57,082 bases of DNA from Parasitella parasitica NRRL 2501. Lineage: Eukaryota > Fungi > Mucoromycota. How positions within the stretch are numbered: the first letter of the stretch is position 1; each line of letters opens with the position of its first letter. Of this stretch, positions 14,960 through 54,346 are shown in pieces. Location: the NCBI GenBank assembly GCA_025201805.1, contig MU619290.1:1-57082 (forward strand), in the 5' to 3' direction. Position numbers and translations under genes: made by a program. The notes beneath the pieces were generated by a model. It saw nothing but the letters and a program-made list of their open reading frames with translations, was not told where the DNA came from and did no database searches.

Positions 14960-15841
14960 TTATTGCCCAAATTTACTAGTCAATTGGTGGTTTTCTCCAA
15001 TGACAAACGGGATTGTTGCCCTCTGATAGTAGTCTGCATATAGTTCAATGTTGTTAATAACTGTGTCCAATAGATGAGCTTGTCCTGATACTACTCCAGG
15101 GGCGTCAGAAAATGCAACTGCGGTTATATGCACATGGAAATGATAGTAGGATGGTTGATAATGAATGAACAAGCGCAGCTGGTGCGGTAATAATTTAGCC
15201 TTCTCTTCAACAAGTCTGTAACTGGTATCCCGCAATTCTTTTAAGAATCCCAAATGCTGGCGTGTTAGTGATCGCAGCGATAGAATATCTGAGCGCATGG
15301 ATATAGCAACCCAATATAAAGTTTCGTTACGACCGTCCCATTTCATATCTGGCAAAATGACAAACCCTTTATCAGGGTCACGGTCATGGTAGATTACCCT
15401 CTCGACTTCAGCTGATCCGTCCAAAATGTTGTGCACCCATGCAGTGCGCTTTTCAGGAATGCTTTTGATGTAGGGAACTGTGATTGTTTGGTATAGCTCA
15501 GGTGTCTCTACAAGCATTACGCGATATTGTGCTTCGTATTTCGCAATGTGGACGTCTGTGGCGGGGAAGATTGTTTTGATACGAGTGTCAGGCTCTTTGC
15601 TCTCCACTTGGGCCATACACCAGCCATAAATGTTGTTTTCAACCGTATCGTTCATAGTGTCATTGTTGACAGACTGTGTTAAAGTGGGGATCACAGTGTC
15701 ATCGTATTGGTTTTTCTCAAACGATACAATGCAATCTTGGCCTTCAACCTGTCCCAGTACATAGACCAATTTCGTTCTCGTATCGTTGGATAGCACACGA
15801 ATGAACTGAAATTTTGATAGTATGTTTTTTAGATTGGACAT
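14960..15841 (-). CDS. DCS1: m7GpppX scavenger decapping enzyme (DcpS/Dcs1, HIT family)
   Basis: HYQPSYYHFHVHI HIT motif, GFVILPDMKWD, ETPELYQTIT; single exon; start at MSNLK (15841). Confidence 0.95.
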   Translation of the reverse strand: MSNLKNILSKFQFIRVLSNDTRTKLVYVLGQVEGQDCIVSFEKNQYDDTVIPTLTQSVNNDTMNDTVENNIYGWCMAQVESKEPDTRIKTIFPATDVHIAKYEAQYRVMLVETPELYQTITVPYIKSIPEKRTAWVHNILDGSAEVERVIYHDRDPDKGFVILPDMKWDGRNETLYWVAISMRSDILSLRSLTRQHLGFLKELRDTSYRLVEEKAKLLPHQLRLFIHYQPSYYHFHVHITAVAFSDAPGVVSGQAHLLDTVINNIELYADYYQRATIPFVIGENHQLTSKFGQ

Positions 15842-16386
15842 CTTAATGTTGAGTGGAACGTTAGAAAAGAGGAACGTGTTGTTTTGGGAGTGTTTCACAC
15901 CATTATTCCTAGTTGGACTTTGAAGATTGTACCACATCACCATGCTTTTACTACATTTAAGCAGTATAAATCTTAGAATTAAGAAAATTTAGCAGACATT
16001 TCTGAGCCGTCGTATTTTCGCAAAACTTTCTACAATAACATGCATAGACTCAAAATTTTTATTTGTCAAAAGGCAGTAAAATTTGTCCAAAATTATGGCC
16101 ATTTGAACAAAAGCGCACCTATGAGGCATATTACATCCTACATGTATAAATAGGATCTATGGGATTAGTTTTTACACATATTAGTGATATGTACCTTGCA
16201 AACTTTTATAGGCATAATCGTCAATGGACTATACAATGTAAATCCACAGAAAAAGAAAGAGTATACAATTGAGTCGAAGTTTAAAGCGAAGTTTGAAAAG
16301 AGGTTTGTTTGAAACCAACAGAGACAGCAAATGATTATCGTTTTCGAAATTTTACTTTGTCTCTTAAAAAATACAATTTGTCGGTT

Positions 16387-16822
16387 TCATTGTAAAATTT
16401 TCATATAGGTATAAGTGAAATGTTTATTAAAGTAAGCAGCTAATTGGAAATTTGTTTTGTTATAGCATTTGACGATTTGGCGCTTGGAGTGTCTACAGAA
16501 TCCCTGGAGATCACTGAGACGTACGCTGTTACACGCATCTGTAATTCTTTGCAACAGATTTTCTTCATTCATCAACTTTCGGCGCTTCATTTTTCCTTTT
16601 ACAAGAGCCCAAAACTGCTCAATTGGGTTCAGCTCTGGCGAACAAGATAAATACATTACTCTATAGCCTCTATTCTCATTTTTTCTTATTATTGGATGAG
16701 ACTTGTGAATAGTACAATTATCCACTACGATATAACTACAATATGGCCTCCGTCCATGTCCATGATATTAAGAAGCTCATTTATGAATTTTATAAAATGA
16801 GCAGTGGTTGTACCCTTTGGTA
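16387..16822 (-). pseudogene. Tc1/IS630 DDE_3 transposase 3' remnant
   Basis: PKGTTTAHF...DNCTIHK...YL-SPELNPIEQFW (second D and E region); degraded, missing the usual PPY. Confidence 0.9.
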
Positions 16823-17163
16823 ATCACTTGTTGTTCTCACTACTCTCCTCAATGTCATCGTACTCTTTAGGCGTTTCACTAGTATTATTAAGATTAAAAG
16901 TAAGCTTTCTAACGCACGTTGTTATAAAAAGCCTGAGATAACAAAATAAAGTGTAACTTAAATCTATATTACTATCTAGGCAAAAACCTTATTTGTGCTT
17001 ACCATACAATGATTAGGAGTGTATTTAATTACAGTATTGCTTTAAAAAATGCAGATGTTTTATTATTGAAAAAAAAAGCCCCCAACCCTACCCAACCATC
17101 CAAAAACCAACCAAAGGGTATGCTTAAGAGAAAGAGATAAAGAAAAAGTATAAGAAAAAAAGA

Positions 17164-18924
17164 CTAATCACTGTCGCCTTCATCATCGTTATTTTCCTCG
17201 TCATTTTCATCATTAACGTCTTCCTGGTCTTCATCATCGTCGTCATCTTCATCATCGTCGTCATTTTCATCATCGTCGTCATCTTCATTATCGTTGACCT
17301 CGTCTTCCAATTCATCTTCTTCTACATTGTCCCAGACAACCTTGCTGGTACCATATTCTTTTTGTTTTACTGTGGTATTACTTATACAATCGTCAATACA
17401 TTTTCGTTTTTTTCCTCTACAAGCTTGCTTTTTTATCGCTTCACATATCGCCTACAAAAGTATTGTCAGCAATATTCAAAACAATTTTTTTTTTATACTT
17501 ACAACGAGATCCAAAAGACCATTTGCGACTTCAATTGATTCTTTAGCAAAGTTATTCAGGTTTGAGGGAAAAGTTATTGTTTTTACCTTTTTGGTAATAT
17601 AAAAACTATTAGATTTTAAAAATACGATACATAAGTGCATTTCAAAACCCATAGCAATAAGGTAAGGAATGTAGACACAGTCTTTTTCTTGATTGATTGC
17701 GTTCTTATTTATCACCGAGTTAAGCAAGGCTTTTGAAGCTACAACAGTCTTTCTTTTATCTTTGAAGTATTTGGGTGTTGAACATTCTTTCGCGACTTCA
17801 CCATAGCCATGGTCTTGAAGTTTAGAGTTGTTGATTGTTATTAATCTGAGGTCCATTTTCATTTTTACCCCTAACGAAAGTAAAGATCCAGGGATCGTAT
17901 CACCCCTAAAAAAAAGAGTTCTTGAATGAGAACATAGGTCGCGTAAAATGCAACAAATTAGTATATTACTAATGGGGGATGATGGAGGAATTTTTGAAGG
18001 CCTTTTCAACCAATGGCCCCCAGAACTTGACAACATAATCACATTCAGAGTACGACTTGATAAGTGAGCTCTCAAAAAGGTAAGCTTCTTCTAGATGCTT
18101 TTTAATCCTATTCTCGTAATAAAGTCTGTACATACTTGCAGTCAGCCAAATCATTTAGATACTTACAGAAACTTAAGGACTGAGACGGAAGTAGTAGTGT
18201 CTCTGTCTTTCTTTGCAATGGTTTTTAGTTGATTAAGAGATAATTGTAGTCCCCTATTTGTTGTTTTAATGCTCTAAAAAAGGATGAGTTTATTGAACAA
18301 ATAGTTACTTTCAGATTTTTACCTTGACATGCTTCATTACGTGGTCAAGCTCTTTTTCGTCGAACTCAGGACCCTTAGAGGATTCAACAATAGTATTTCT
18401 TAAGTTTGGTGACAACAGCATGAGGGGCGAGCCAGGGCTTGTATCTGATATGTCAAGTATATGATTTCTTGATAGTCTTCAAGTGTACGTGTTAGAATAA
18501 AAAGTATTTTTTTTAAAAAAAAAACGTTACGTTTTGTAATATAGAGTTTTGTAATTTGTAGGCTTTGTGTGACTTATTGAATTAAACATAGACTTCACAT
18601 CGTCAAACTGAAGAGGCGCGTCAGCGAGAGTAATTAGTGTTTAATCCGTTAGTACCTACGTGCTTTGGCTTCTTCTCCGTTTTCTTCTGCTTGCTCTTTA
18701 AAATATAGATGAGAAACTAGGTCGTCAGTTCAAAAAGCTGTTAAAAGGTTTACCTTTAATGCTTTTCTCTACTTGAAATTTGCCAATTAGTTTTTTGTAA
18801 CGATAAAATTAATGATAAATAACTATACTTGTTCTGAAATTGCCTTCTCTTGAGCCTCTGCATAAAAGAGCTCTCTGTTTTTCGCGTTCTTGATAAGTTT
18901 TTTATTTAACTTATTGGTGGACAT
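17164..18924 (-). pseudogene. PD-(D/E)xK nuclease-like gene #1 (multi-exon, acidic tail), with an apparent in-frame TAG
   Basis: SECDYVVKFWGPL...H[W>*]GDT...KMDLRLI...GYGEVAK...KYFKDKRK; canonical introns; D/E-rich tail ends at TAG 17164; splicing 17969/17906 creates TA|G. Confidence 0.65.
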
Positions 18925-19155
18925 TTTTATTGAAGAGTGAAGAAAGAAGGATAATACTAAGCGCTCTGAATCCGCACTCCAAAATATTTTCGGTGACGTG
19001 ATGATAAATTTTGGTGACTTAGTCAAATAGCAAATCCCCTTAGTAGTGATATTTTAATAATTTCTGGTTTTTGATGACGTATGCTAACACGAAAAGTCTG
19101 TTTTCAAATTAGAAGAAAAAGCTGTTTCCCTTGTTTTAAATTTCATCTAATGCTC

Positions 19156-19682
19156 CAATATTAGATTGAACTTGTGGCAAGAAAAGCGACATCAACGCCT
19201 CTTGTTGCAAGCAGTAGATCTAGCTACTTGTGTTTGATATTGTTGTGTGAGTGTTTTGGTGTGATCTGCAGTCAGTAGCAGTTATTGGGTTGATGTACCG
19301 TGCTGCCAAACATCGCTAGACATTGAACGCTGTCTCTTTTGACGGGTTGATTGTAGGTTCGCATCATAGTTTTCCTATCGGAATACAAAGGTAAGAAGAA
19401 ACCAAGTTTATATTCAGATATATTTATTGACTAGTTGCACACTGTCTTGAACACATTTTGTAGTGGGCATATGCATAAATACACGCAGCAATATCAGACT
19501 GAACTTGTGGCAAGAAAAGCGACATCAACGCCTCTTGTTGCAAGCAGTAGATCTAGCTACTTGTGTTTGATATTGTTGTGTGAGTGTCTTGGTGTGATCT
19601 GCAGTCAGTAGCAGTTATTGGGTTGATGTACCGTGCTGCCAAACATCGCTAGACATTGAACGCTGTCTCTTTTGACGGGTTG
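19156..19682. repeat. Two ~194-bp direct repeats (19156-19349, 19489-19682), period 333 bp, unique ~139-bp spacer
   Basis: Near-identical copies CAATAT(T/C)AGA(T/C)TGAACTTGTGG...GACGGGTTG with about 3 substitutions. Confidence 0.95.
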
Positions 19683-20064
19683 GCTGCAAGTCCTACACCT
19701 TAGCTGCTGTTACGAAACTGGTTGGCTAAACGTGGTTCTTTCAACGCGAATTGACCTTTTTTTAATTTATTAAAAAGTGCTTTTTGGACAACTTGACTCC
19801 ATGAGGCCAACCCTAAAGATACAATTTTGACCACAAATACTTTTTGGAGGACTATTGGACAAAATATTCACTCATCTCTATTCCCAACAACTTTGTGATA
19901 AATAAAAAATAGTTGCCTCACAAGTATTCCCTGTTAAAGTTTGTCGGCCTTGTAGGCTCACTTGCTAAAACTAAAAATAAAATAAATTGAACTCTGATTG
20001 ACAATGGATGGGCCATGCCTTTATAAATAACTAGAGGCTTTTTTTATCGTATCTTTTGCTGTAG

Positions 20065-20230: not shown

Positions 20231-20610
20231 CGCTCTTTATGATAATAGTTAGTTATAGGAGCGAAAATAAAGGATTAAAGCATTTACATCACAGCTGACA
20301 ATAACTCTCACTAACGCCAAAATGACTTGCCTCAAAAAGACAAAATATAATTTCGAAAACGATAATCATTTGCTAACAAACGACCAATCATTTTTTAGGT
20401 AGCGCCATTTATTTTTAGATAATCGCCATTTATTTTTTCAAAACGGACAAAATTTACCAGCCGCATTGTATCAGCCTTGAAGTTACGTTTATAAATGTGT
20501 TGCGTTTAAAAATTTGTGTGTATCTTTCTATAGTGTTTGCGTGTCTATTACCTCCTTTATTATTTTATTTATTTATTTTTTTAAAAAAAGGAGAAGGGAG
20601 AGGATGAGAA

Positions 20611-23600
20611 ATGTCTTTTATACGAAATAAAACTGTAAATAAGCGGTCTATCTCCAAAAACCAATACAAGCAAATGAAAGAAAATGAGGATCATCATCAG
20701 CAAAATGAAAATGAAGAAGCATCGATTTCTTCTGGGTCCCCTTTCATGTCTTTCAGCCCAAAGCAAAATATCGAAGTATCTCGTCGTTATACACAAAAAC
20801 AACCACCACCGACCGTAGCAGAATTTATGACAGAATTCGAGCAGGAAAGACGACCTTCTTTCACAGTAAAATCTTCAAGTATCAAGTCGAATCATTCCGA
20901 TTTACCCAATGCAGATGAAGATAGTATGGCATCATATGAGGACATTGAAGATTTCTCGGATACAGCCAGATTAACAATTAATGCGTCTGATATGGATGGT
21001 TTCCATGGCAACCAGGGGAATGGCAGTAGTAGGGATCAAAATAGATTAGCCGTTGCCATGGACGACGACCTTGATTCACAGCAAATTTACAACACCAGTA
21101 TCAATAGCAATAGAGCATCGTTTCAACAAGGGCGTCCTATTAGTAGAATTTACGAGCCAGCACCCATAGACCCGAAAGTAGATCAAAGAAATAGAAAGTT
21201 GCAAAGGATTCTTTATTTTGACAAAAAGGCGTACGCTAAAAGTGTGTCGAGAGGAATTCGACGAGTATCAAAGAGAGTTGTTAATGTGCACAACGACTAC
21301 AACCCAGATACTCTTGCATCTCAGCCCCAACAGCCACAGCCACAGCCACAACAGCAAAATCAACAGCAAAAAACATTGACAGATCAAGATACGTTCATGA
21401 ATAAAAGAGCAAGGCATAATGCAGACGACGGTGATTCAGATACCTCTTCCGACATAAATGAAGTGATACCCATGACTCGAACATCTTCGAATAGCAAGAC
21501 ACGGATCTTAAATACCTCATCATCATCTACATCACAAAGTAGTAGTAATAGTAGTATAAATCAAAAAGATACCAAATACAACATCCAACTAGCTGGCAAT
21601 AGTTTGAGGCTATTGTCGCCTACAAATCCATTTCGACTCTTTTTTGCCAAGATTTTATATTGCAAGTATGTGGCTGTTTTTACAGGACTTTAATGCTTGG
21701 AACTAACCTTCACTAAAGATGGTTCGAAACGTTCATTATGCTTTTGATTGTTTTGCATGGAACAGTATTATTAGTCGTAGGATGGGGAGCAAATCCATTT
21801 CCAGCACCACCAAGTCACTGGACACCTACTTGGGATCAGGTTATACTACTCGTTATATTTTCAATCTATACCCTCTCGACATTTTGCCGCATTATTGTCT
21901 ATGGCGTATTTATTAATTCTACGCCAAACTCAAAGACAGCATTTCTAAGGCATAGTTGGAATAGGGTGGACATTGTATCTATTGTGTCTTACTGGATTGA
22001 TCTAGCATTGCTATTAACTCAACAAGAAATTGTCGATGAAAGTAGAAGGATATTGGTTTTCAAGATGTTGTCTAGTCTTGTGCTACTCAGACTATTGAAT
22101 TTGACAGACGGTAGCCGAGTCATCCTCAACAGTCTAAAGAAGGCAGCACCTCTTTTAGTCAATGTCTTGTTCTTTGTGCTATTTTTCTTTGTTATATTTG
22201 CGTAAGATCGATTCAAATGCATGTAATCGCCACTATTCAACTTGTTATCTGCAGTATTGTAGGCGTTCAGTCTTTCAAGGGATCCTTTCGAAGGCATTGT
22301 GTATGGCACGGTAAGCATAAAAATTGTGACAGATTCAAACATGTAATTAATTTTGTGATTTTTTTTTTCAAGATCCTAAAAATTCAAGCAATATTCAAGA
22401 GTTACAGCAATACTGTGGTGGGTATATAAATGCTTCTGGCTATACGGTGCCCTATTTATTACAAGACGGATCCCAAGCACCTTGGTCGAAAGGATTTATC
22501 TGTGAGGCTGGATTGACATGTGAAGTAATGGTTTTAGGTTTTTGCTTTTTGTATCACCTTTTATGCTAACCTCAGACTGATATAGGAAACCGAGAATCCG
22601 TTTGGAGGTACAATCAGCTTTGATAACATATTCTCGTCCATGCTGTTGGTGATGATTATTACGGGTGGTACGTGTGTTTTGAATGGTAAATAAATAGCCA
22701 GCGTGTACTCAGGTTGGTAATAGTGCAATCGTGGACGGACAGGATGTATGATATGATGGACGCAGAGTACTTTGTGGCTAGTCTCTATTTCATCATTATT
22801 GTCATTGTCATGAATTTCTGGCTTATCAATCTTTTCATTGCCGTGATCACTGAGATGTTTGCCAAAGTCCGAGAAGATTCACAGCACTCTGCATTCACAA
22901 ACTCGACGGCCAAACCAGCGTTGGCAGATGCGAATGAGGAAGGAATGTGGGCATATTCTGAGCATAGCGAAGCTCAAGGGAAGCAGCTGAAAAAAAACTC
23001 GTCCTTGGCACTGCTTGTCAAGTACATGAATCCGTTTTGGATAGTTTTGGTTGTTGTGGATTTGCTGTGCATGGCATCAAAGAACAATGACATGTCTGAT
23101 GAAGAAATTGCAGCATTAAATATGGCAGAGACAATATTCTCAATTGCATTTTTGTTTGAAATCTTGGTGCGCATGCTGCATCAAAGAAAGGATTTGAAAG
23201 GATTCTTCAAAAACAAGATGAATTCAACTGATCTACTGATTGCAGTTATCACTTGCATCATTCAGATACCTCTTATCCAAAAGAATGTGTACGTATATGT
23301 GTGGTTTACGGGTTTTCAAGTACTGCGTATTTATCGGTTGGTTGTGGCAGTGCCTAGACTAAGGAAATTGATGGTAAGTTGACATGCCAAAAATGGCGGA
23401 AAATAACTAGGAATTCTAATGCGGTTGGTAGTCTCGCGTATTAGGTAGCGTGTATGGTCTCATCAATCTGTCGTTCTTTATCGTTCTGGCTACTTTATTA
23501 TGTGCAATCATTGCTTTTCAACTGTTTGAAGGCGTAATCAATGAGCTGGGCGATGAAACAGAAATGAGGTTTTTTTCTGTTTATAATTCATTCGTCTCGC

Positions 23601-26600
23601 TCTACCAGGTAGACTTTTTTAAATGCTATAGTAAAAGCCAAACGTACGTATGCTAAGCGATTTTGTTTAGTTATTTTCTGGTGAAGACTGGACAACAGTG
23701 CTATACAATGTAATGGAAGCAGGCTCAAAAAACAACAATGCTGTTATCTATGCTTTATTTCTGGTATTCTGGTTTGCGTTTTCCAACTGTAAGTTCCTTA
23801 CAAATGTGCTTTCGCAAAATCTTAATAACTAATATTTGCATTTTGTGTAGTCGTGCTAGTTAATCTATTCATTGCAGTACTAATGGAAAATTTTGAAATT
23901 GCTGAAGAAGATAAAAGAAAGCGTCAAGTTTTGCAGTTCATGGAGAAAACAGAGAATGAATTGGGCCAGAAAACAGTTGTCAGCCGCTGGAATATATACA
24001 GATACTTTAAACCGAAAGCCAAAGGATTAGATATCAAGAATATATCCAGTAACCTTGTATTATCAGTCCAGAAGAACATTGTCCGTGAATTTATGAACGA
24101 GGCAACCGATGCAAATGCAAATGACCTCACTTTACAATCATCAAAAACCCGTGAACAGGTTGATCAACAGCAGCAACAAATAGGCGTGTTTTCAAAGATA
24201 AAGAATCTTCTCGGTGGGCTGTATGCAGACAGTGGTAGTAAACTCGAGCAACAGCGCAACCAGCGTAATAGAGAAAGTTTGTACATCGACCCCTCAAACG
24301 TATTCGACCAAGCTGGCACGTTCTATGATTCCAAAAAAACCGATATCAATGAGCCGCGTTCGTTGCGATATCTAGTTGATCCAACATTGAGAGATACAGT
24401 AGCCAACAGATATCAGCAAGAAACAACAGACTTGGATCTTGAAGAACGAAAGGCGCTGAAAAGAGACTTCATCGCGTCTCACCCGTCATATGATAAGTCC
24501 CTGTATATTTTTTCACCTAGCCATCGTCTTCGAAGATGGTGCCAGTTGATTGTCCAGCCTAGTCGTGGCGAGCGTATCTTTGGTACGCCTGCTTCTAAAT
24601 GGGGGAGCATTACATTTCTGACCATCATTACTTGCTGTGTCATCATCAATGTAGTGTTGACAATTTACAACTCGCCTGTCTACCAGTTTGAAAATCGCAA
24701 TAACCCATCAGCTGTGATGCCTTTTGTCTATGTGGATTGGGCATTCACTGTTATTTTTAGTGTCGAGTTTGCAATCAAGGTGGTTGCCGATGGTCTCATT
24801 CTCTCCCCCAACGCGTACATGCTGAACGGCTGGAACATATTGGATTTATTCGTCTTGATTACCCTCTACATGTCGAATTTTGGTAATTTCGCTGCAGCAA
24901 CTGGCTTGGAACGAGGCTTCCGTGCATTCAAAGCTTTGAGGGCACTTCGTCTCATCAATCTCCTTGGCTCTGCTAAAGAAACATTCACTGCCATTCTTGT
25001 CACAGGCCTTCCGCAGATTCTCGATGCTGCCGTGTTGGGTTTATGTCTTATTGTGCCGTTTGCTCTATACGGACAAAACGTATTCATGGGGTTATTCTAC
25101 AATTGCAACGATGGAGATAACAACAAGCCTGAGTGCATGTTTGAAAGTATGTTGGGTGTACAGGAACCAATGCCAGAAGACTCTGAAATCTATATGCCTC
25201 GTATTTGGGATAACCCTTACGTCTATAGCTTTGATTCTTTTTGGAAATCGTTGTTGATTCTGTTCGAAATTGCCAGTGGTGAGGGCTGGATTGATGTTTT
25301 AACAACCAGCATGGGCATCACAGGTAAAGATCTCGCTCCTGAGCAAGATGCGAGTCAGCTGTGGGGCATTTTCTTTATGGTGTACAACCTAGCAGGCTCT
25401 GTCTTTGTGATTTCGTTGTTTCTTGGTGTGGTTATCGAAAATTTCACAAAGAGAAATGGAACGGCATATCTTACCAGTGATCAACGACGCTGGCTTGATC
25501 TTAAGAAACTGCTCAATCAGTTCAGACCAGCCAAACGACCAAAGAGCATTCCTGTAAATCGAATTCGTAGGATATGCTTTAACCTAACAGTAGAAAAGAG
25601 AGGCAGATTCTACAAGTTTATGACCCTTGTCATTTCCTTAAACATCTTGTTCCTGTGCACCGATGCTGTGTATGATGTAAACGATGTTGACAACGGAGAA
25701 ACAGGCTGGAGCCGTATTAAAGGTAACAAGAATCATAGATGTAGATAGCAGGTTGTTCTGATGCTCTGCTATCCGTAGTTTATGTTTATCTGCTGTTTAT
25801 ATTCGTATACTGGATGGAGATCACAATCAAATTACTGGGCCTGGGATGGAAGTCCTTTCGTAGAAACCTTTGGAATCTGTTTGATCTGACCATGGTCGTC
25901 GGCAGCTTTATCACTGCTGTTATCACATTGGGAAACCCTAATTTGCAGGTGAATGTGGAATCACAGAAACTATTCATGACGGCGCTATGCTTTAAATTAG
26001 TGCAAAGAAGTGATAGTTTGAATCAGTTGTTTACAACCATGGCGTATGTAGCGCATCATGTTGTTCCACAGCAGATGAATTAACCCATTTTTATATAGTG
26101 CATCTTCGTATCAAATCCTAAATGTGTTTGCAGTGTGGTTTGTTGTGCTAGTGACCTATGCAATCATGTTTATGCAAATATTTGGTCTTACAAAATACGG
26201 CCCCAATGCGACTACCGAGCACATCAACTTTAGGTCATTTGCAAATACACTGATTTCACTCGTGCGCTATTCAACTGGGTAACTTTAAGGAGATATCAAT
26301 TATATCCGTTACTAATGCCTTTGTTACAGCGAGGGTTGGAACTCGATTATGCACGACTTCACTGTTGAACATCCAAACTGTGTTTTAGCAGACAACTATC
26401 TAGACTCTGACTGCGGCTCACTTCGCTGGTCGTACTTTCTGTTCCTGACGTTCAATATCATTTCTATGTACATCTTTATTGCTATTTTCGTTGCCGTGGT
26501 AGCTGATAACTTTTCGTATGTTTACCAAATCAAAGCAAACTTTTCTTTGGTCAACCGAGACGAAATTAGAAAATTCAAAATGACATGGGCATCGATCGAC

Positions 26601-39601: not shown

Positions 39602-40689
39602 AAATCAAAAAATGAAGAAAATCGATAATAATTCAAACAATATTGTTTGATTTATATATCATGTCAATTCAATTCCTTCGATAGTGTCACCGTTGTTCAT
39701 TTCGGCCCTCCTTAATTTTTTTTACCTATCAAGTCCATATGAGTGGGAACGGACCAAAAATGAGCTGATACCTATAATACTGGTGCGACAATGTCAATGT
39801 AAATACTACGGAATCAACTTGTTTTATCGCCAACATGACGCAACACTTCAGCAGATGTAACATAAAAAACATGCATAAGTCTCCATGAATTCAACTGAAA
39901 ACAAATCTTGTTTTTTTCCACAATTAATATTGTTTAAATTGGTGCATAAAATGTGAGTAAACACAAACAACAAAACCTCCTTATTCTGATATATTTAGGC
40001 GGGGAAAGCTAATGGTTCCCATACATATTTCTAAATATAGAAACCGAGGTTTCTAAATGGTTTGTCCACGTTTAAGTGATCACTCCTGAAAATAGTTGTA
40101 CAGTGCGGCTTGTAAATATTGTCACTGCGCGAAAAGTAAATGCCACAACTCGAAATCTGGTTGTCAGTTGGGCAAAAATGATTGTCGCTTTCGAAAAATC
40201 ATACTGTCTATTCCCCCCAAAAGTCATAATGTCGACTTTGACCAACTGCTACAAAATTTCATCTTGGTCAAGTTGCTTCTCCATTTAGAGATAATTAGCT
40301 GTTAATATTGAGCCTATCTATCACGGTGCAGTATAGTTTTGAAACGAAACGATATGCTTTTACAGTGTCTCCATTGCAAAATTGCCTTTTAGAATTAGCT
40401 CGACTTTTAATGTATCTCAATTGGCGCGTTTTTTACCAAAACGCTGTGTGCTCATTTTGGTTACAGTCTAGATTATTATGCTAGGATAGATGTATTACGG
40501 GTAATTTGGTAAAATCTTAAATTTGCGGGATCAATAACCTTATTATCAAATTTATCAAATGTCTATAAACCCTTTGTATGTTGTTTTTTTTTGTATTAAA
40601 GCGTATTTTTATTAGCTTCATGTATTGAGTACGTACTATTTAGAGGTAGGGCCAAGTTGCCAGCCTGGACATCTACCGAAGAATAAAAG

Positions 40690-40905
40690 GAACCATAATC
40701 CTGACGAACCATGTTCAGAACAGCTGACTGTATCCAAGGCTCCGCGTCTATGACACGTCGCTAGTGATATCTCCAAAGCATTAAAACACTGCACCAAGCA
40801 ACGCCAGAATATCTTCATCTAACGCCACCATTTCTGGCGAGCAAAAACTATTAGGGGCTTTCCAAATCGACAGGTCATTGGGGAGCTCCACTTTGCAAAA
40901 AATTC
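40690..40905 (-). pseudogene. Possible LINE (non-LTR) ORF2 C-terminal remnant
   Basis: Degraded frames read LSIWKA...LALLGAVF...WRYH*R, resembling the WRxHW tail of L1-like ORF2s. Confidence 0.35.
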
Positions 40906-41168
40906 TCTACAAACTATTATATGAGCTCTAGAAAAGTTCCTAATTATCTTGAATAATTCTCTAATTATACTGTTCATTATAACAGCTACAGAGATTTACA
41001 AAGCCATTTAACTTAATACATGGTAATGCCTGATTCACATGGCGCTATGATACTACTAGATGTTTTTTTTTAGAACCATTACTCTTTTCAATTATATTTC
41101 TGAAAAGAAAACGTGAATGCTTTATACGCAGTAAACTTAAAAAAAAACATATTGCTTTTCGACTTTAG

Positions 41169-42794
41169 CTAGAATAATCGTCGACGGGCACGCTGTACAG
41201 CAGGATTATTTTTGTCTAATTTGCGTTTTTTGTCCCTGATAATAATTGGTGTGTGCATTGAGACAATATTGTCCAAAAGACGAATGGCAGGTTGAGGACA
41301 ATTTCTTAATTTCACTGCAGATGAATGAACGATGACTTGTAACTTTTGAAACAAAGGAAATATCGGTAATAGCTGATGCATTTGGTAGCAATCACCAGGA
41401 AAATTGACACTTTTAAACAATACAACACGGTACAATCCATCAAATACATGATCCATACAATATACATGACAGCGATTTCCCTTCATGAGAATACCAGAAA
41501 CGATAACACCAGAATAACCATCATTATGTAGCGCTTTCATGGAGTCTTTCAGCTCTCTACATAACTTGACTAATTCATTTACATGCTTGGTTTTGTTTGG
41601 TTTTGCTTCTAAAGATAACAGTATATGGTCGGATTTGCTGGAAACAACCGTGAAATCAGCTCTTTTACCATAGTTCTTGAGTGATGGATCCAATCTGGTA
41701 AATCTCTTGGAATAATCAGAAATCATGGCATCGCAACCAATTGATTTGGTCAATGGACTGTTTGGAAAGTAGGATCTGAAAAAGGCGTCGATTGTATCTC
41801 GGACAAGAGTTGCTTCATTTAATTGATCGGTAGAATAATCTGTACAATAGATATTCGTAACATCATATAAAACTCTACAAACAGAAGTATCATCCGGATA
41901 CTTATTCTCGTACTCTTTGATATATTTCTGGATTGCAGTGATATTGATATTTCTTGTAGCAAGATCGTTTGCAAACATGATAACTAGCTCTTCTTGAGAT
42001 CTCTTCATACAGGCACTTTTAAATGCATCAACTTGGTCAATATCATTAAAGATACGTGGCACTTCTTCATAATCCACAATATCAGTGTTTACAAATCCAT
42101 TATCAAGTATCATTATTCCATCCAAAGCCAGCTGTTCGTGATCATTCAGATCTTGCAAATCTTCAGCTTTACTAATAGCAGCATCCCGATAATCAAAGAA
42201 TGCTTGTGAAACATCATAATTATTCACCATCCATCTGATAGAGTTCTCCTTGAGCTTGTATTGATAAGTTTGTCCATCATGGACTAGGTAATGTTTTGCT
42301 ACACCTTGATTTTCATCATTTGAGCTGCTCGGCGATGGTGTCGAATCGCGGCTTCGATACTCAGATCCTTCACTCTCTTCATTGCCAGACGATTCAGCTG
42401 CAAAAACATTCTCGTAATTTTGTACCTGTCTCATTGTCTGTTGGATCTCTGCGGCTTTCAATTTTGATCTTGTGAGTTTCATTGATTTAGCATTCCAATA
42501 ATCGATAAATGCTTTTTGTTCAAAGATCTAATAAGCACTTTTAGAGCAAGCCTTAAATACTTGATAAACTTTTTTTCATACCCCAAAGTTATCCTTGATA
42601 ATAGCGTGAGCAAACGCTCTCGCCTTTTTTGATGATTCTTTTTTATCTTTAGTGTCTTTGATACCCTCTACTAAAAGCTTGAAATTGGCAACTGCAGAAT
42701 GTTTAGTTGGACAACCTTGGATATCCAAAAACTTGATTATGTCAAACAACTGATATGATGCATGTTCAGAGAAGTATTCAAAAAGCTCTCCCAT
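41169..42794 (-). CDS. PD-(D/E)xK nuclease-like gene #2 (two exons, apparently intact)
   Basis: Exon 1 MGELFEYF...; intron ~42527-42580; exon 2 LNEATLV...GKRADFTVV...ILLSLEAK...KLCRELKD (D...ExK core). Confidence 0.72.
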
Positions 42795-45380
42795 TATAGC
42801 AAATTAGTAAATCGTTTTGATTGATTAGACTACGGTAGATTGATTTGGGGTGTAAATTTGTGATTTATAAGGGACAAGCGCAGCTTTGACCGATTCGACG
42901 TCATAAATATCCTAAGATAAACAGCATATTTTTATTTTTTTATATAGATCATATATTGATAGAGACCCACAAAATAAAAATCAGACTTTCCACCCAATGA
43001 TTGTTGCTAATCACCCGTTCGAGTCTGCCATAACTCGTGTATTTCACTCTTTTTTGAAGAGAGAAAGCAGTTGTAAGAGCTTTGACCTGGCCAGTAAATT
43101 TGGGTGATTCCTCTTTTACACCTTACAACGACGGTATTCGTTACTCCCCCTATCATTGGCGATCTTGAGAGATAGTGAGCTAACAGGGATTCTTTTCGAA
43201 TGTATTAGCAACACTTTAGCTTTCTTTTACTGCATCGACAAGAGGATTTGCAGATATAATAAGTCACATAACAATCCTTTCCAAATGCCACTTGAAACTG
43301 CCCAAAACGCAAATTGGATCATTAGAAAAGCGTCAATTGGGATAAATTAAAGTACGAGCTAATTTTAAAAAGCAATTTTGCAATGGAGACACTGTAAAAG
43401 CATATCGTTTCGTTTCAAAAATATACTATACCGTGACAGATAGGCTCAATATTAACAGCTAATTATCTCTAAATGGAGAAGCAACTTGACCAAGATGAAA
43501 TTTTGTAGCAGTTGGTCAAAGTCGACATTATGACTTTTGGGGGGAATAGACAGTATGATTTTTCGAAAGCGACAATCATTTTTGCCTAAACTGACAGCCC
43601 GATTTCAGCAAAGTGACACACACTTCAAGTAAATGATAAAGATCATGGTAGTTGTGATAATAAATATTAGAGTTTCTGGTAACAAACCTTTTATTTCTGG
43701 TACAAAAAGTTTCTGAGAGAAGAGAGTATTTGCTTTGTTTGATCATAGTGAAAATGCAAATATAATGTGTTGTAAAATAAGCTATCTACATCATATACAG
43801 ATAAATTTTTATAAATGGGTGTGTTATGCTGATGGCAGATTGTTTCCTTTTCTCTGGCATTTTCTTATTCCTTCAGTTGATCTGGCGTCTTCTAGTGTAG
43901 AAGTAGAAGAACTTGCCAGACAAGTACCAAGCAGGGTTCTCTATATTCAGTTGCACAGTAGAACAGCTAGTTAAGCTTGTGCCGTCTTTTCCATAATATT
44001 GGAATGGTTCAAAAGTGTGTGTCTTTGCAAAACTAGCGTAGATTTTAGGCGCCTGATTTTTAGTCTGCGCAAACTTCAGTGTGTTATTGTCAGATTAAAG
44101 AGAGAAACACGTATCAAGTTGAAGAAGTAAATTAATGGTATATATAGACGAGTATTTACAGACTTGTGGACTACAGTCTATCAAGCAATGCATTATGCGT
44201 TGCAAAAAGTGGTTGTCTGCAAGAAAAAAATGTTAAGCAATCTCATACACAGAATCGAGTAATACAAAGTAATGCATTAGACTATAAGGCACCTTTGGAT
44301 TACATATTTGCGTAGCTTAGAGCAAGTTTTTGTACTTTTCAAGTTAACATCAGATGAAGGTAGCGATTTTTCAGACTTTTCTCGGAAAAGTATTTTTCAA
44401 AATCGGAGCGTGAGATCTTCAGGCCATGTGCAGACATGCAAGTACTACCATTAGAAAGCCAAAAAGTACAAAATTTAAATAAATAAAAATACAATTGTTT
44501 TTTTCTTTGAATTGGGCAAGCTATGGCTTTTCAAAGCTAATGCTTTCGTCAAAAAAACACTATTTTTTTCTTTGATAGCGGAGATTAAACGCGTCCAAAA
44601 TCAGGAAGTAAAAATTCTTTCAGAAACTCCATTTGTACAATTAGAAAACAAAATTACTTTTTTAAGGCAAAATATCATTCATTGATACTATGCATACCCC
44701 AACTGTCAGTCTATGATAATAGCTGTCCTTTTGGACGCTCTACACGATGGTATTATTTCATGATTCTCGTATGCTCATGGAAGGAATTATCTCGAGAAAA
44801 CCTCAAAACAGATCAAGAGGAAAAAGTCAATATTTTGCTTAATCAGAGCGCATTTCCAGTCTTTTAGATTAAGGGATGGTCTTTTACAATCATTTTCCTC
44901 CAATATATGCTATAGTAAAAAGTTGCATTTTTGGGTTAAAAATCGAGGATAATGCATAATCAATGATTTTGGATGTGTGAGTACAAGGAAAAAATTGAAA
45001 AAATCCGTCATTTTGCATCGAAAAAAAAATCATGCCCAAATTGCACCAAAATCATACATAATATAGTTTTTTCCCAAGAGATACTATTTCTGGTGTTTTC
45101 AGGGAACTTTTGATTATAAAATCGGTCAAAAGATGGCACACAAAACTAAAGTTCGTGCTTTTAAGCTGTAAAAAATATCTATCTGGAGATGATACCACGT
45201 CAATATCAGTTCTATTACATAACACAGCCCTTTAAAGTAAGTATTTTTAATGCTATTTGAATACCTTTCTTTATAGTAATATTATATAACAGGTGTAACT
45301 CATCGAGTTGGAAGCAGAAGAGACTAATTAATGAAGACAATGTTTTGCTGTACTGACTCCTTGTTATTTGTAAATAATTC

Positions 45381-46092
45381 AAACTTCTCGTAAGGATTTC
45401 TTGAGACCGTTAGAACAAAATAGGAAATGTTATAATGCTAGAGTCTTCTTGAAGTTTTATTTAATAGCGAATTCAAAGCTATATAAAGACAATGAAAAGC
45501 TTTACATATGCTATTAATCTTCTTTTTCGCTCGGTCAGTACCAGCTTCTTTTAGATTCATAATCTCCCTTACACTTCCATATACTTCACGCATTTGTCAC
45601 ATTTTCATGCCTGCCGTACAAAAACAATTACACAGACTGCAGCAACAGCTGGCTGCTCTTCTCTAAGAATAAATCAATGGTGCTTTACACATGCACTTAG
45701 CGGATGATACTGCCCACATTATGCCTCTTCATTCTTTTGGTGCGCTTCCTTCTTATGACTGGACTCCTTCTGAACAACTTATTACATTGATGCAACTGAA
45801 TGTCCCTTTGCATACATCCCAACCTCTTCAAAACAAGGAATTTGTAACGATTATGGACACTTAACCTCCCATGGCCCATTTTACCTACAAGGCTCCAGCG
45901 ACTATTCCCATGACTGAACGCTTAATGATTAAAAGGTCAACGATATGAAGATAAATCTCTTCAGCATTTTCAAATCTCTTATCGGCTGCCTTGCGCTCAT
46001 TAGATATTCTTACACATTCTTTTACTCTGGATTAGCATAATAACATTTCCTATTTTGTTCTGACGGTCTCAAGAAATTCTTACGAGAAGTTT
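45381..46092. mobile_element. MITE-like / deleted DNA transposon with ~60-bp TIRs
   Basis: 45381-45440 vs 46033-46092 are inverted copies (AAACTTCTCGTAAG.ATTTCTTGAGACCG..., about 3 mismatches); decayed internal coding fragment. Confidence 0.8.
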
Positions 46093-47720
46093 CTTTCGAC
46101 CTAGAATCGTTCAAAAGATTAAGGATCTATGGAGCCAGTATCAAGAAGTAGACTGCGACCCCTCAATTTTACTTTCCCAGCCACACATCTTTTTCAAATG
46201 GCTTCATTTCCTGCAGGAAGAAGTTGAAAAAAAGTACATATAACTGAGGGAATTGCCGAAACCATTGCTTCCAAAGCATACGTTCATCGAAAAGTTAAAA
46301 AAGCTACAGTTTGCGGCATCGTTGAATAGACAAAAATTTGAAGCGGTTTTTAGTTCGATTAACAGTAATGAGCCTCTCATTTTTGGAAAAAAAGCTTCAA
46401 AGTATTCAAGAACACAAACCAATGGTGTCAACTTTCGTAAGCACTGTGAAATCAAGGATAAAGGATAAAACATTTTGCCCCACAAAATACACCGATAAAC
46501 GTGAGTGTCGCCTTTTCTCTCTGTTACCATTGTATTCAACGCAAAGAAAATCAATTCAGATTGACGCACAATCTTTCTGGAGACTGGTCAGGATTTCAAC
46601 TGTTGATGGTTATACTACTACAGGAACTAAAAATGAAGAGTAACTGTCTGCGTTTTATTACAAACTTTTTGATTTTTCTAAAATTGGATTTAAAATCAGA
46701 GATAAGCTCTACAATGGAAAGAAGATCTTTGAGTAAGTTCATATAGTTTTAATTTAGTAATGCCTTAGAACTTATCAAGTTATATTAGGAATTTTATCTA
46801 CACGGATGATTATTCAGTTTCTTTTCTTTTCTCGACTTACAGCAAAAAGAAGAAAGAATCTCTTCCCGTAAAGCCATCTGACCTGAAAAAAGATATTGAC
46901 AAAGGGTACCAAGTGTGGGCGGCAGACCCTGGAATTAGCACGGTTTTTACTATAGTTGACCAAGCTGGTAGTGTGAGATCACCTAGTCAAAAGGAGTATT
47001 ATCACTTGTGTGGGTTTAATGATGCCGCTCACATTTGAAAGATTCATCAAGCGAAGCACATAGACACTCATAGAATGATAACAGAACTGGATTCATTAAA
47101 ACCGGAGAAGTTTCAAAATCCTTGATTGCTGGCAGAAAGCGTATACAATCCTACGATACAATGTATGAATATTATAACAGAGGCCTTTGGTAAGTGTAGC
47201 AAACTCTTGTATATATTTTAAAAATGTGTTAACCAAATGGAATAGGTCTTCAAAATTAAAGTTTAGATGTCATAGAAAGAAGCAAAAAGCCTTCAGCGAA
47301 ATAGTCAAGATGTTTACTCATGATAGCATCAAATATTGAACGGGTGCGTCCACCATTGTGAAGACAACAACGAGAAACAACAGTTCTTACTCCCGCCCTC
47401 CACCACTGGATGGATCATTTAAGGCAAATAAAACCATCATTGCCTATGGAGATGGAAGATTTTTACCTACTATGAGAGGCAAAAGACCTGGACCTACAAA
47501 GACTATCATAAAAGCTCTTCAAAAATGTAAAGAAAATCGTGGTGTTACAGTCCAAATGGTAGACGAATACCTCACCAGTCATGTCTGCAACAACTGCAAA
47601 AAAGAATGGCTGCAAAAAACATCCTCAAAATATTTTTACATGCAAGAAACAATGACGCTCGTCTTTCACCACTCCAGCGTTCTGAATCAAAAGATAATTG
47701 CAAGCATTGTGTGTCATTAA
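46093..47720 (+). pseudogene. Fanzor1 (eukaryotic TnpB-like RuvC nuclease) pseudogene
   Basis: PLYSTQRKSIQID, YTDDYSVSF, RuvC-I VWAADPG (D at 46925), KEYYHLCG, IAYGDG...RG, RuvC-II VDEYLTS + CNNC, then frameshifted MAAKNI; in-frame stops; RuvC-III NRD and second CxxC deleted. Confidence 0.88.
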
Positions 47721-50415: not shown

Positions 50416-51739
50416 ACTGTCTCCAAAAAATCAAATTATTACAACATAGAATGAATTGTACATTATATTACCTTCTCTTTTCTCTTTCTTTATTCTCGTG
50501 TAAATAGCATATCCTTCATTAAATAAATATAAAAAACGCTGAATATTAAAAATATTTGATTGTTTCCACCTTAATTTCTTCAGCGAATGATTCATCTCGT
50601 CAAAGTTGGCTTATTTGTGTCACTTTGCCTCTACGCATTATAATCAAATTTACATATAATGCTTTTATTCTTTTGATCTGATGTGAGCACGTTGATGTTC
50701 AAGGTAAATTATTTGATACATGGAGAAATTATTATAATATATAGATATATAGCTTATTCACGTGGGATGACTTATCAAGAACTCTTTAGAATAATCGCTT
50801 AAATAAAAACTTACGAGTTAAAGTAGTTTATGGTCGAAATATGCAAAAAATGGCTGCTTAGTAGATCGTGTAAAACAATCTCACAACCCAGAATTGTCGA
50901 AGAGAGTATGTAATTTATTACTCACTGTTTTGCGATTCTGTGATTCTCATAAAAGAGATCCAAAAAAGTTATCGATGCATGCCGTTCATGGGGAGAGAGG
51001 GGGCCACAGTAGAAGACTCATTTGTTGTATCAATAGGATACAAAGATTACCATCGTTATTTCAACTCATGGATCGGATCTAACGTTAAATATATAAATGT
51101 CACCACTGGCTATTCCATAATAGATAAAGTGATTATAGAAAGATTGTTGGATCAAAAAAGATAATAAAAACCAAAGGTTAACGAAATACGAAAACTTAAA
51201 GATACTTTATTTAAGGTCGAAATTGCATCTGCTATTTATACTTTTTACAACTACATAAATTTATGGTGACTTATTAAGGTTGCTAATTGACAATGTGGAA
51301 TCGGTATAAATTGTTATATGGATTCACGGGAAAAAATTATTATAAAAAACAATAAATGTCAACTTGTTAAAGGTATAGGTTTTATTATCAAAACGACAGA
51401 TGTATAAAGCTCCACTTCATCTACTGGCCACGTAGATGAACCTTTATATACTTAAGCTATGGATAAATGTTTTACTCTCGCAATTTAACATGTACGACAA
51501 TACTGCGTAGCTAGCATCTTAACTTTGTGTTAACCAACATATCAGCAGACTCAAGATAACTTATATCTATTTGAGTGAGGATATAGACTTTACTCGAGGT
51601 ACCCTGATTAATCTTCTATACGAAGATTGTTAATATCGATCCATAAGCGTATATCATTTCTTGTATAGTCTTATCCAGTCTATATTAATAGTACGTGTCT
51701 GAGTGTATATCACTTGGTATTCATTTTAGCATATATCGA

Positions 51740-52080
51740 TATATGTAGAATGTCTATAGCATGTCATGAGCATGTCTATAGCATTGCACATATTGTACGA
51801 GTCTGTAGTACATAATGTATCTGTAGCTAGTGTCATGGATATAAATAAATGTCTTGTAGTGCGTATCTAGAAACTGGGAATAAGCACCTGAAGCATAGAT
51901 CTTATATAGCATAAGCTCGTAGCATATATTAAATCTAGTAAATGTCTAAGGCTCGTGTCGAGGTATAAGTATAAGTCTATAGCGTCATCCATTCTAATGG
52001 TGCCATCTATAGCTTATATCTTATATCTTATAAATTTCTATTGCACATCTTATTATCTGTGCGCATATGTAGTCTATATC
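51740..52080. repeat. Degenerate minisatellite of TCT(A/G)TAG(C)AT-like motifs
   Basis: Recurring GTCTATAGCAT / TCTGTAG / TCTATAGC words. Confidence 0.55.
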
Positions 52081-52639
52081 AATTTAAGGGAACTGGATGA
52101 ATCTAAAAGTGGAATGCAGATCAAATAGTGAATGTATTTCGCAGACAAGACTAATTTACAATGATAATCTACTTGACAGGGTACGATGTAAAGTTATATA
52201 ACAAGGGCTACACGTCTCTGATCTGATAATGTCTTAACCTTTATCCTGGTGCTCAGATCTGTGTTAATTACAGGAATAACCTTCTTGATTCGAAACAGAT
52301 CCTTTATTTTCCAGTTTACGCAAGCGTATCACATCACATCATTGGAGAATCTTCAATTTTCAGTTGAAGTACACTGCCATGATTTCCTGTCTATAATCAT
52401 GGCAAATCAAAGACTTGCATTAGAAACTATCTACTTGAGTCCTACTCACTTTAACTTACGATGCTAAATTTATTGATGAGTGATTCACATTCAAATTGAC
52501 AATTAGCTGATTAAAATAGACATGTCCTGCTCTGACTGCTACTTTGTTAAAATCTCGTTTGACAATTTACTGCCAAACAAGAACTTTTGTGTTCACAGAT
52601 GGATTTACTATGTTAACTAATTTACTATAGCTGGGGCAC

Positions 52640-53206: not shown

Positions 53207-53306
53207 AATATAGTATATTCGTTTTTATTATTAAGGACAATTGCTGTTCATTGATATTATTGCTAAGCTTGTGCACTCTTCTTGGATTACCAGCTGCCTT
53301 TAGTGC

Positions 53307-54152
53307 AAAACACCGATGCTCAGGCCTAAGGCCAAGAGAACACACATTCCCTTGGTCTCTGCGAGAGAACCCGACCGCTGAATCGCCAAACAAGAATCAC
53401 CTTGTCGGTCTAACTCGATGAGTTACATCAGTCCACCTTTACAAGAAAGGTACTACTTGATAAGCAGAACAGGGCTGGCGTCTTGGACCGCAGACATGTA
53501 GAATGAAGAAATCAAGAGAATACATTAAACAAAGTAAAATAAGGGTTAGGGCATCACTATATTGATAATTTCCTATACTTGGCTGGAATCGCACATACCT
53601 TATCTTGATTTGATTCATCATATAAACTTTCTGCAGAATCAAAACACCAATGCTCAGGCCTAAGGCCAAGAGAACACACATTCCCTTGGTCTCTGCGAGA
53701 GAACCCGACCGCTGAATCGCCAAACAAGAATCACCTTGTCGGTCTAACTCGATGAGTTACATCAGTCCACCTTTACAAGAAAGGTACTACTTGATAAGCA
53801 GAACAGGGCTGGCGTCTTGGACCGCAGACATGTAGAATGAAGAAATCAAGAGAATACATTAAACAAAGTAAAATAAGGGTTAGGGCATCACTATATTGAT
53901 AATTTCCTATACTTGGCTGGAATCGCACATACCTTATCTTGATTTGATTCATCATATAAACTTTCTGCAGAATCAAAACACCAATGCTCAGGCCTAAGGC
54001 CAAGAGAACACACATTCCCTTGGTCTCTGCGAGAGAACCCGACCGCTGAATCGCCAAACAAGAATCACCTTGTCGGTCTAACTCGATGAGTTACATCAGT
54101 CCACCTTTACAAGAAAGGTACTACTTGATAAGCAGAACAGGGCTGGCGTCTT
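53307..54152. repeat. Tandem array, period 334 bp: three 178-bp hairpin-rich modules (53307-53484, 53641-53818, 53975-54152) and two 156-bp spacers
   Basis: AAAACACC(G/A)ATGCTCAGGCC...GGCTGGCGTCTT occurs three times; the two spacers appear identical. Confidence 0.97.
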
Positions 54153-54346
54153 AAAACGCAGAGAGTATGAGATGAGGAAAGAGAAAGAAAAAGAGAGGAC
54201 ATTATTAAAATGATTTAGCCGTTAGTGCACAGTCCCAGGTCCAGAATGAGGTCATCATTGGATGCCCAATAGCTCGCGTAGTTGATAAAAATTTCACGCG
54301 CAAATAATGGTGCCACCAAACCTTTCTTTGCTTTTTTTTATCAGCA

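Follow-up and report, generated by a model that had tools for sequence, protein, structure and literature searches.

What are the two near-identical segments at 19156–19682, just upstream of a nuclease gene, in the genome of Parasitella parasitica NRRL 2501? The window (the whole stretch of DNA analysed) is 57,082 nt of contig MU619290.1. The preferred answer is a two-module array in a non-autonomous Mucorales DNA transposon, the module being a likely gene for a structured non-coding RNA that would bind, control or aim the nuclease. Taken whole, this answer is held at a little under even confidence. The array architecture is well supported, the RNA reading of the module moderately, and the partnership of nuclease and RNA only by inference. 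Sequencing runs compared with the window are X1, X3, X7, X10, X12 and X13 (6 of 23 listed); X1 and X3 possibly stem from the same source as the window.

The gene-proximal module copy (19156–19349, predicted strand +) is the candidate core of the non-coding RNA. The distal copy (19489–19682, +) is likewise 194 nt long; the two differ at module positions 7, 11 and 100, T/C each time (BLAST E 1e-92). Module ends read CAA...TTG on both strands. The spacer (19350–19488, 139 nt, no strand assigned) is the rest of a 333-nt unit; it is missing in a one-module allele and forms one contig in longer arrays. An earlier note on this DNA had described two copies of about 194 bp with a 333-bp period, which is confirmed. 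Both local stems quoted there are present in the module sequence, and the distance to the ATG at 18924, put at about 230 bp, is 232 nt; that ATG agrees with the start of full-length relatives. The most conserved part of the module is 19266–19326 (61 nt, no strand assigned), with 0 differences in one X1 contig, the depth of which implies sharing with a paralog. The distal flank (19683–19955, no strand assigned) is joined to the module on a contig of the presumed-RNA run X12 that continues for 273 further letters, 30 of which were compared and match the window. In or near this flank AATAAA occurs on the + strand at 19901, 19976 and 19981.

No match to Rfam is found in the modules at E ≤ 1, and no tRNA genes are found. 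A B-box-like word at the spacer start is without tRNA or Rfam support. At the 19-kb locus the spacer has no significant homology to the distal or the proximal flank (z −1.1, −0.4), and the 20 nt flanking the modules have no match elsewhere in the window at ≤3 mismatches. A small protein encoded in the module is rejected, and a coding role disfavoured, because paralogous modules differ by single-base indels (19228, 19251, 19257) and frames are too short: none that starts with ATG exceeds 18 codons (frames of at least 25 residues computed, shorter ones by eye).

The host element is about 4 kb long, with gene and array between inverted repeats at 16326–16365 and 20335–20374. Its array-side terminal region (20335–20468, −) ends beside TA and reads CAATG inward, like the CAGTG beside TA at 40100 in the 40–43 kb element. 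Contigs of X13 diverge behind 20471–20472. The opposite inverted repeat persists as a remnant (16326–16365, +; 40 nt, 93% complementary) with its outer part gone. Such CA.. termini beside TA are present at one end each of the 19-kb and 40–43 kb elements, the other ends being truncated. A non-autonomous element of Tc1/mariner type, with the nuclease as cargo, is inferred. No DDE transposase is found in the 19-kb element. Rhizopus gene models fuse DDE_1 to the C-terminal half of a relative of the nuclease; an artefactual fusion in the gene model or a nested insertion could each account for this. Two stretches, 16580–16646 and 20420–20471, are common to many contigs in all four runs compared (depth in X3 up to about 15–19 times that of the flanks) and are taken as subterminal motifs belonging to a wider family of elements. 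On either side of the element lie host genes, for the scavenger decapping enzyme DcpS (14960–15943) and for a large ion channel (20611–26000). In X3, 16770–17139 is joined to 18540, an internally deleted derivative of the element from the same or a close genome.

The neighbouring gene (17166–18924, −) is spliced and codes for a predicted nuclease with a PD-(D/E)XK-like (restriction-endonuclease) fold; the protein of the closest relative has about 436 aa. Contigs of X12 skip 18608–18659 and 18702–18828, both introns starting with GT. Near 17970, at the exon junction, the window's copy is interrupted by an in-frame stop, and three other runs have a different sequence there; the array persists beside this broken copy, which counts against an RNA partner. 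Identity of the main exon is 94% to a Helicostylum pulchrum protein, 71% to Thamnidium, and 52–66% to Rhizopus and Spinellus. In the structure model of the full-length relative P0006 (pLDDT 90.7) the PD-(D/E)XK core fold is present; activity is only predicted. Structurally, the model comes closest to two mitoribosomal proteins, with Z 10.7 and 10.5 over 212 residues at an rmsd of about 5, presumably the rRNA-binding chains mL65/mL37. Restriction enzymes are matched at Z 9.7 (DrdV; 143 residues, rmsd 3.1) and Z 9.4 (BpuSI). Foldseek returns nothing for the model at E ≤ 0.001 (best E 0.027). Within the family D223 is nearly invariant, and the consensus SE.D, KxDLR and gEfAk contains conserved acidic and lysine residues, probably at the core strands. 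No Pfam family covers the nuclease, and no TnpB hit is obtained in 73 family members.

The family profile also matches genes at 41.3–41.5 kb (E 0.007) and 55.7–56.0 kb (E 7e-7). Mucorales contain 278 family representatives at E ≤ 0.001 for one query. Two of the ten 90%-identity clusters looked up span genera (Helicostylum and Mucor; Thamnidium, Benjaminiella, Gilbertella and Backusella), which suggests horizontal spread; the nuclease genes appear to move between Mucorales genera on transposons. An Atlas search with P0006 returned only unnamed Mucoromycota clusters, and one with the 41-kb protein nothing useful. A study on REase-bearing Crinkler-like proteins and transposons reportedly exists.

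With its two modules, the 19-kb locus represents one state of an array, (module-spacer)n-module, that varies in copy number. The series seen comprises one module (X7), two (19-kb locus) and three (53-kb array); longer arrays are read from contig depth, which is a hint and not a copy count, so that unit numbers drawn from it are estimates. In X7 one contig that includes both flanks runs directly from 19166 to 19500, leaving one module and no spacer. The module contig of X10 has a depth of 178 and the spacer contig 191, against 21 and 17 for the two flanks; these ratios point most readily to a single array with about nine units, all identical. In X1 the window's spacer has the depth of a single-copy sequence (140); a variant spacer, again forming one contig, reaches 590 and a variant module 577. 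A further array of about 4–5 units is inferred from the depth ratios. Also in X1, a third module sits in a unique 2407-nt contig, and a paralogous nuclease contig (49 differences in 270 nt) joins on to a module at 19135. Among the module ends listed, those of four out of four runs lead into element flanks (16 of 20 loose ends and 26 of 44 pieces covered).

The spacer, called unique in the earlier note, is so inside the window for the 19-kb locus; in the 53-kb array it is repeated, and in related genomes multi-copy spacers collapse. That spacers vary or match other loci is not borne out, spacers within one array being identical. A CRISPR-like repeat-spacer array is rejected, since the 53-kb spacers are repeated at ≥98% and the multi-copy spacers of X1 and X10 each collapse to one contig.

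Host flanks of the element are without cover in X7 and X10, which is not taken to prove insertion elsewhere. Variation is seen in the presumed shared promoter region: a 12-nt insertion is present at 19121 in X10 and X13 (apparently in X7 too) and a stretch of about 100 nt between gene and module is replaced in X10 (18952–19055). Related loci were searched for in viral contigs, metagenome contigs and prokaryote genomes, and none was found.

A second element carries an array at 53306–54153 (−) of three 180-nt modules with a period of 334 and a repeated spacer; the spacer repeats along with the module (542 nt at 98%). Modules of the 53-kb and 19-kb arrays are unalignable (no pair with z > 2.5, no covariance-model hit), and a covariance model of the 19-kb module finds neither the 53-kb nor the 43-kb sister. 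The two arrays nevertheless share period, position, CAA start and a helix from base 1, and their nucleases are distant. Agreement of the periods within 1 bp despite unalike sequence, as first noticed from the letters alone, thus holds (333 vs 334). In the 53-kb module a helix closing base 1 on base 180 (9, 11 and 11 pairs) is predicted only on the strand opposite its gene; closing helices of at least 9 pairs have a background of 0.05%, and the terminal variant keeps its pair as U-G. Fold scores of this module are alike on both strands (z −3.0 vs −2.75). Its spacer scores z 3.3 for homology to its own gene-side flank. Upstream of the array, 51400–52100 is AT-rich, with dense TATAG/CTATA and TGTAG words.

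A third element holds a single predicted multiloop at 43002–43213 (212 nt, no strand assigned), closed by 10 pairs about 200 nt before a nuclease gene, with z −1.5 on + and −2.5 on − (the gene strand). It is possibly a one-copy counterpart of the module. This element (40100–43606) has 281-nt inverted repeats at 94%, a long frame on − (41169–42482) and no tandem array; the frame is a distant member of the nuclease family. Downstream of its nuclease gene lies 40821–40907, the strongest-folding tile of the window scan (z −5.4; rescored −3.7 on + and −0.3 on −). The stretch 46769–47720 (+) is a decayed Fanzor/TnpB-like gene with frameshifts and stops, in which WAADPG, AYGDG, VDEYLTS and CNNC are recognised by eye and a weak Cas12f1-like TNB match (E 0.0008) stays below the cut-off. 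Just before this remnant, 45381–46092 is MITE-like, with 60-nt inverted repeats at 95%. At 131–1114 a frame of 327 aa, Cys-rich at its C-terminus and unmatched in Pfam, is possibly transposon-derived.

The first 87 nt of the 19-kb module (19156–19242; same at 19489–19575) are predicted to form, on the + strand, a three-way junction closed by an 11-pair helix from module base 1 (1–11 with 77–87); another helix pairs 16–27 with 45–56. The z-scores are −3.2 (copy 1) and −4.6 (copy 2) on +, and −1.2 and −2.0 on −; the 87-nt boundaries were picked after the fold was seen, and strand z-scores are to be read with the caveat that G/T-rich strands fold better in general. In the background, 1 of 440 tiles reached z −4.6 and 7 of 440 reached −3. 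The signal is confined to this part and strand: the whole 194-nt module is only weakly above shuffles (z −1.0 to −1.6), and its 3' half folds no better than they do (z 0.2). Perfect stems are not enriched in the module. A pseudoknot through an 8-bp loop-to-upstream pairing is dropped, as 25% of shuffles reach it. Strand evidence is mixed across the elements: the 19-kb module favours +, the 53-kb module is near-equal, and the 43-kb segment favours the gene strand.

Run X12 is RNA by presumption, one run of one study with contigs without strand information. It contains spliced joints of the nuclease gene and at least four contigs over the module, two of them continuing into distal flanks. Of the module contigs, the one with the greatest depth extends 28 letters beyond base 1 before ending. 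Bins 19356–19525 (spacer) and 18948–19117 are without cover, as are the coding-exon bins 18880–18947. These gaps are not counted as transcript ends, because a coding exon also lacks cover and a single study is involved.

Between paralogous elements the module is 88–91% identical (15 differences and 1 gap in 171 nt; 24 and 1 in 203 nt), the 5' part of the gene including its intron 82%, and the spacer less than 82% (33 differences and 8 gaps in a 227-nt contig, 87 nt of which are module ends). The higher identity of the module could instead stem from gene conversion between elements. All three differences between the window's copies are C/U facing G on + (pair probability ≥0.99 in copy 2). One paralog carries A>G at 19213, a change that still allows G-U pairing on + but disrupts a predicted pair on −. 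Of 8 visible variant sites none clearly breaks a + helix (2 deletions are ambiguous), and 2 fall in a helix predicted on −. No compensatory two-sided change is seen among these 8 sites, which counts against an RNA gene.

The 8 gap letters of the paralogous spacer leave zero net length change and a period of about 332; since net length is kept, the period is about 332, 333 or 334 in three arrays. The length constraint suggested in the earlier note is upheld to the extent that the period looks constrained. Of the two causes it proposed, RNA-unit size is supported by the RNA-run contigs, the fold and the C/U-opposite-G changes. For the other, two nucleosome repeats, the evidence speaks neither way: no repeat length for Mucorales was found in the literature, and arithmetic on published figures for Rhizopus microsporus gives an average per nucleosome not above about 188 bp.

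That the module is a small RNA which partners the nuclease is likely because copy number varies, the conserved core is found in presumed RNA and a fold is predicted. A small RNA gene would lie head-to-head with the nuclease gene, on the + strand, and be read away from it. RNA gene and upstream DNA would have been duplicated as a 333-nt unit, the spacer being promoter-side DNA of each unit. Units would be gained and lost by unequal exchange between modules, which would also keep the modules alike. The element would be mobilised in trans by a DDE transposase of pogo/Tigger type, and the array would probably be kept since the module RNA would bind the nuclease.

As to what the bound RNA might do, a guide scaffold is conceivable though rather unlikely; an inhibitor is slightly less probable, and the remaining weight falls on a bound RNA of another role. 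Under guidance, the 180–212-nt module would be the scaffold of an RNA-guided restriction-fold nuclease, bases beyond the module end would be the guide, and tandem copies would add dose or a second guide. In favour of this are Fanzor, as a precedent for cargo nucleases of Mucorales elements that lack a transposase, and the abrupt loss of identity where the module ends; the internal position of the module and the identical internal flanks agree with it less well. An inhibitor is favoured by the amplification of dose. If RNA-guided, the system would be eukaryotic, unrelated to Cas9, Cas12, TnpB and Fanzor, and a new programmable nuclease class; if inhibitory, it would be an RNA-antidote selfish element in fungi. 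In either case, a conserved and folding module-like RNA that keeps its position next to three widely diverged nuclease members would be a handle on nuclease genes kept by elements.

The strongest alternative, unlikely but to be taken seriously, is a neutral satellite-like internal tandem repeat: one duplication, perhaps of two-nucleosome length, followed by unequal crossover and transcribed as leader or read-through only. Variable copy number with identical units, the weak fold of the whole module and persistence beside a broken gene all agree with it, as do central tandem arrays, which are common in non-autonomous DNA elements according to the available text of PMC7492417. It does not account for two unalignable arrays with the same period, position and CAA start and similar module length, for a module more conserved than its spacer, or for differences placed at G-U-compatible sites.

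Less probable than neutral repetition is a DNA-level site, the module being bound or cut by the nuclease (or serving as promoter or operator), with cuts driving unequal repair and multimers, as proposed for KolobokP. In the available part of PMC9587614, KolobokP has an identical solo/dimer/multimer grammar with constrained length. The sharp CAA...TTG ends are in keeping with such a site, and so is an inverted motif CAAG-N-CTTG, found post hoc 2 times in the 19-kb module and 3 times in the 53-kb module against 0.15 expected. The nuclease, however, lies outside the repeated unit, so that multimers do not copy it; the C/U-opposite-G changes are evidence for one strand; and an insertion that the third paralog has at 19228 interrupts one CTTG arm.

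It is improbable that the module is transcribed on the nuclease strand, as a structured 5' leader or an upstream transcript that regulates nuclease expression, with the promoter in the distal flank. RNA-run contigs do join module to distal flank in the 19-kb element and in a paralog, a third-paralog contig runs about 205 letters further toward the gene side, a TATA-like word is seen by eye near 20020 on −, and for the 43-kb segment the gene strand gives the better fold. Against these, the 19-kb module folds better on +, its variant sites fit +, and a joint of module to exon 1 is absent among the joints listed.

Very improbable is insertion into the element of an independent TRIM (LTR-internal-LTR, with forms that are solo LTRs or tandem), the finding that the earlier note had named as fatal to its own view: sizes and the solo/dimer/multimer series fit (available text of PMC10886601 and PMC7215508), and in one X1 contig part of a module borders, at 19218, on 40 nt unlike the element, but the standard TRIM hallmarks looked for are not seen (ends CAA...TTG and not TG...CA; no 4–6 bp target-site duplication, with outer flanks ...ATGCTC and GCTGCA... 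and none at the 53-kb array either; spacer without TGG start or terminal purine run on either strand, by eye), and the listed module ends reach element flanks in all four runs, the array being part of the nuclease element. The likeness of spacers within an array, the CAA...TTG ends and the missing duplication make both a dispersed TRIM and a CRISPR-like array unfit.

The reading of the module as a likely RNA gene in a transposon-borne array can be set beside known systems; no description of this array-nuclease system was found in the literature, mostly outside subscription journals. Type III toxin-antitoxin systems are bacterial and have tandem RNA repeats of a few tens of nt upstream of an RNase toxin, on the toxin's strand, which form short pseudoknots and are co-transcribed. 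Tandem repeats upstream of a nuclease gene are the feature in common, by analogy; here the units are 333 nt long, predicted on the opposite strand, and eukaryotic. TRIMs (Cassandra, Helenus, Ajax) are similar in direct repeats of about 200 nt, a short internal part, solo and tandem forms and small-RNA-like content. Their TG...CA ends, target-site duplication and standard PBS/PPT are not seen here, no tRNA or Rfam match is obtained, and the module is tied to one place in a DNA element; fungal Helenus TRIMs have a PBS of anticodon-loop type (available text of PMC10886601).

KolobokP, as far as described in the available part of PMC9587614, is composite-like, (LTDR-INT)n-LTDR, with unequal crossover proposed. 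It shares the solo/dimer/multimer series, length-constrained direct repeats and an associated endonuclease. Its repeats are 450 or 660 bp and its TIRs up to 18 bp long; its internal part codes for a DDE transposase and a His-Me nuclease, whereas here that part is 139 nt and non-coding, and the nuclease lies outside the array. Cg_HINE Helentrons likewise have variable-copy central arrays in non-autonomous elements (available text of PMC7492417); the present unit differs in combining a conserved, folding stretch with a variable one and in keeping a constant distance to the nuclease gene.

Similar in element organisation is Fanzor1, a nuclease cargo of TIR elements without their own transposase, including ones with Mariner-type TA ends and Mucorales elements, according to the available text of PMC3627910. 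With Fanzor1 and its omega-RNA (OMEGA) the present system has in common a cargo nuclease in a transposase-less TIR element and a candidate RNA of similar size. The nuclease is of RuvC-type TnpB there and of restriction-endonuclease fold here. OMEGA guides derive from DNA adjoining the element end (available part of PMC13565253); the module described here ends 786 nt inside the terminus and is tandemly amplified.
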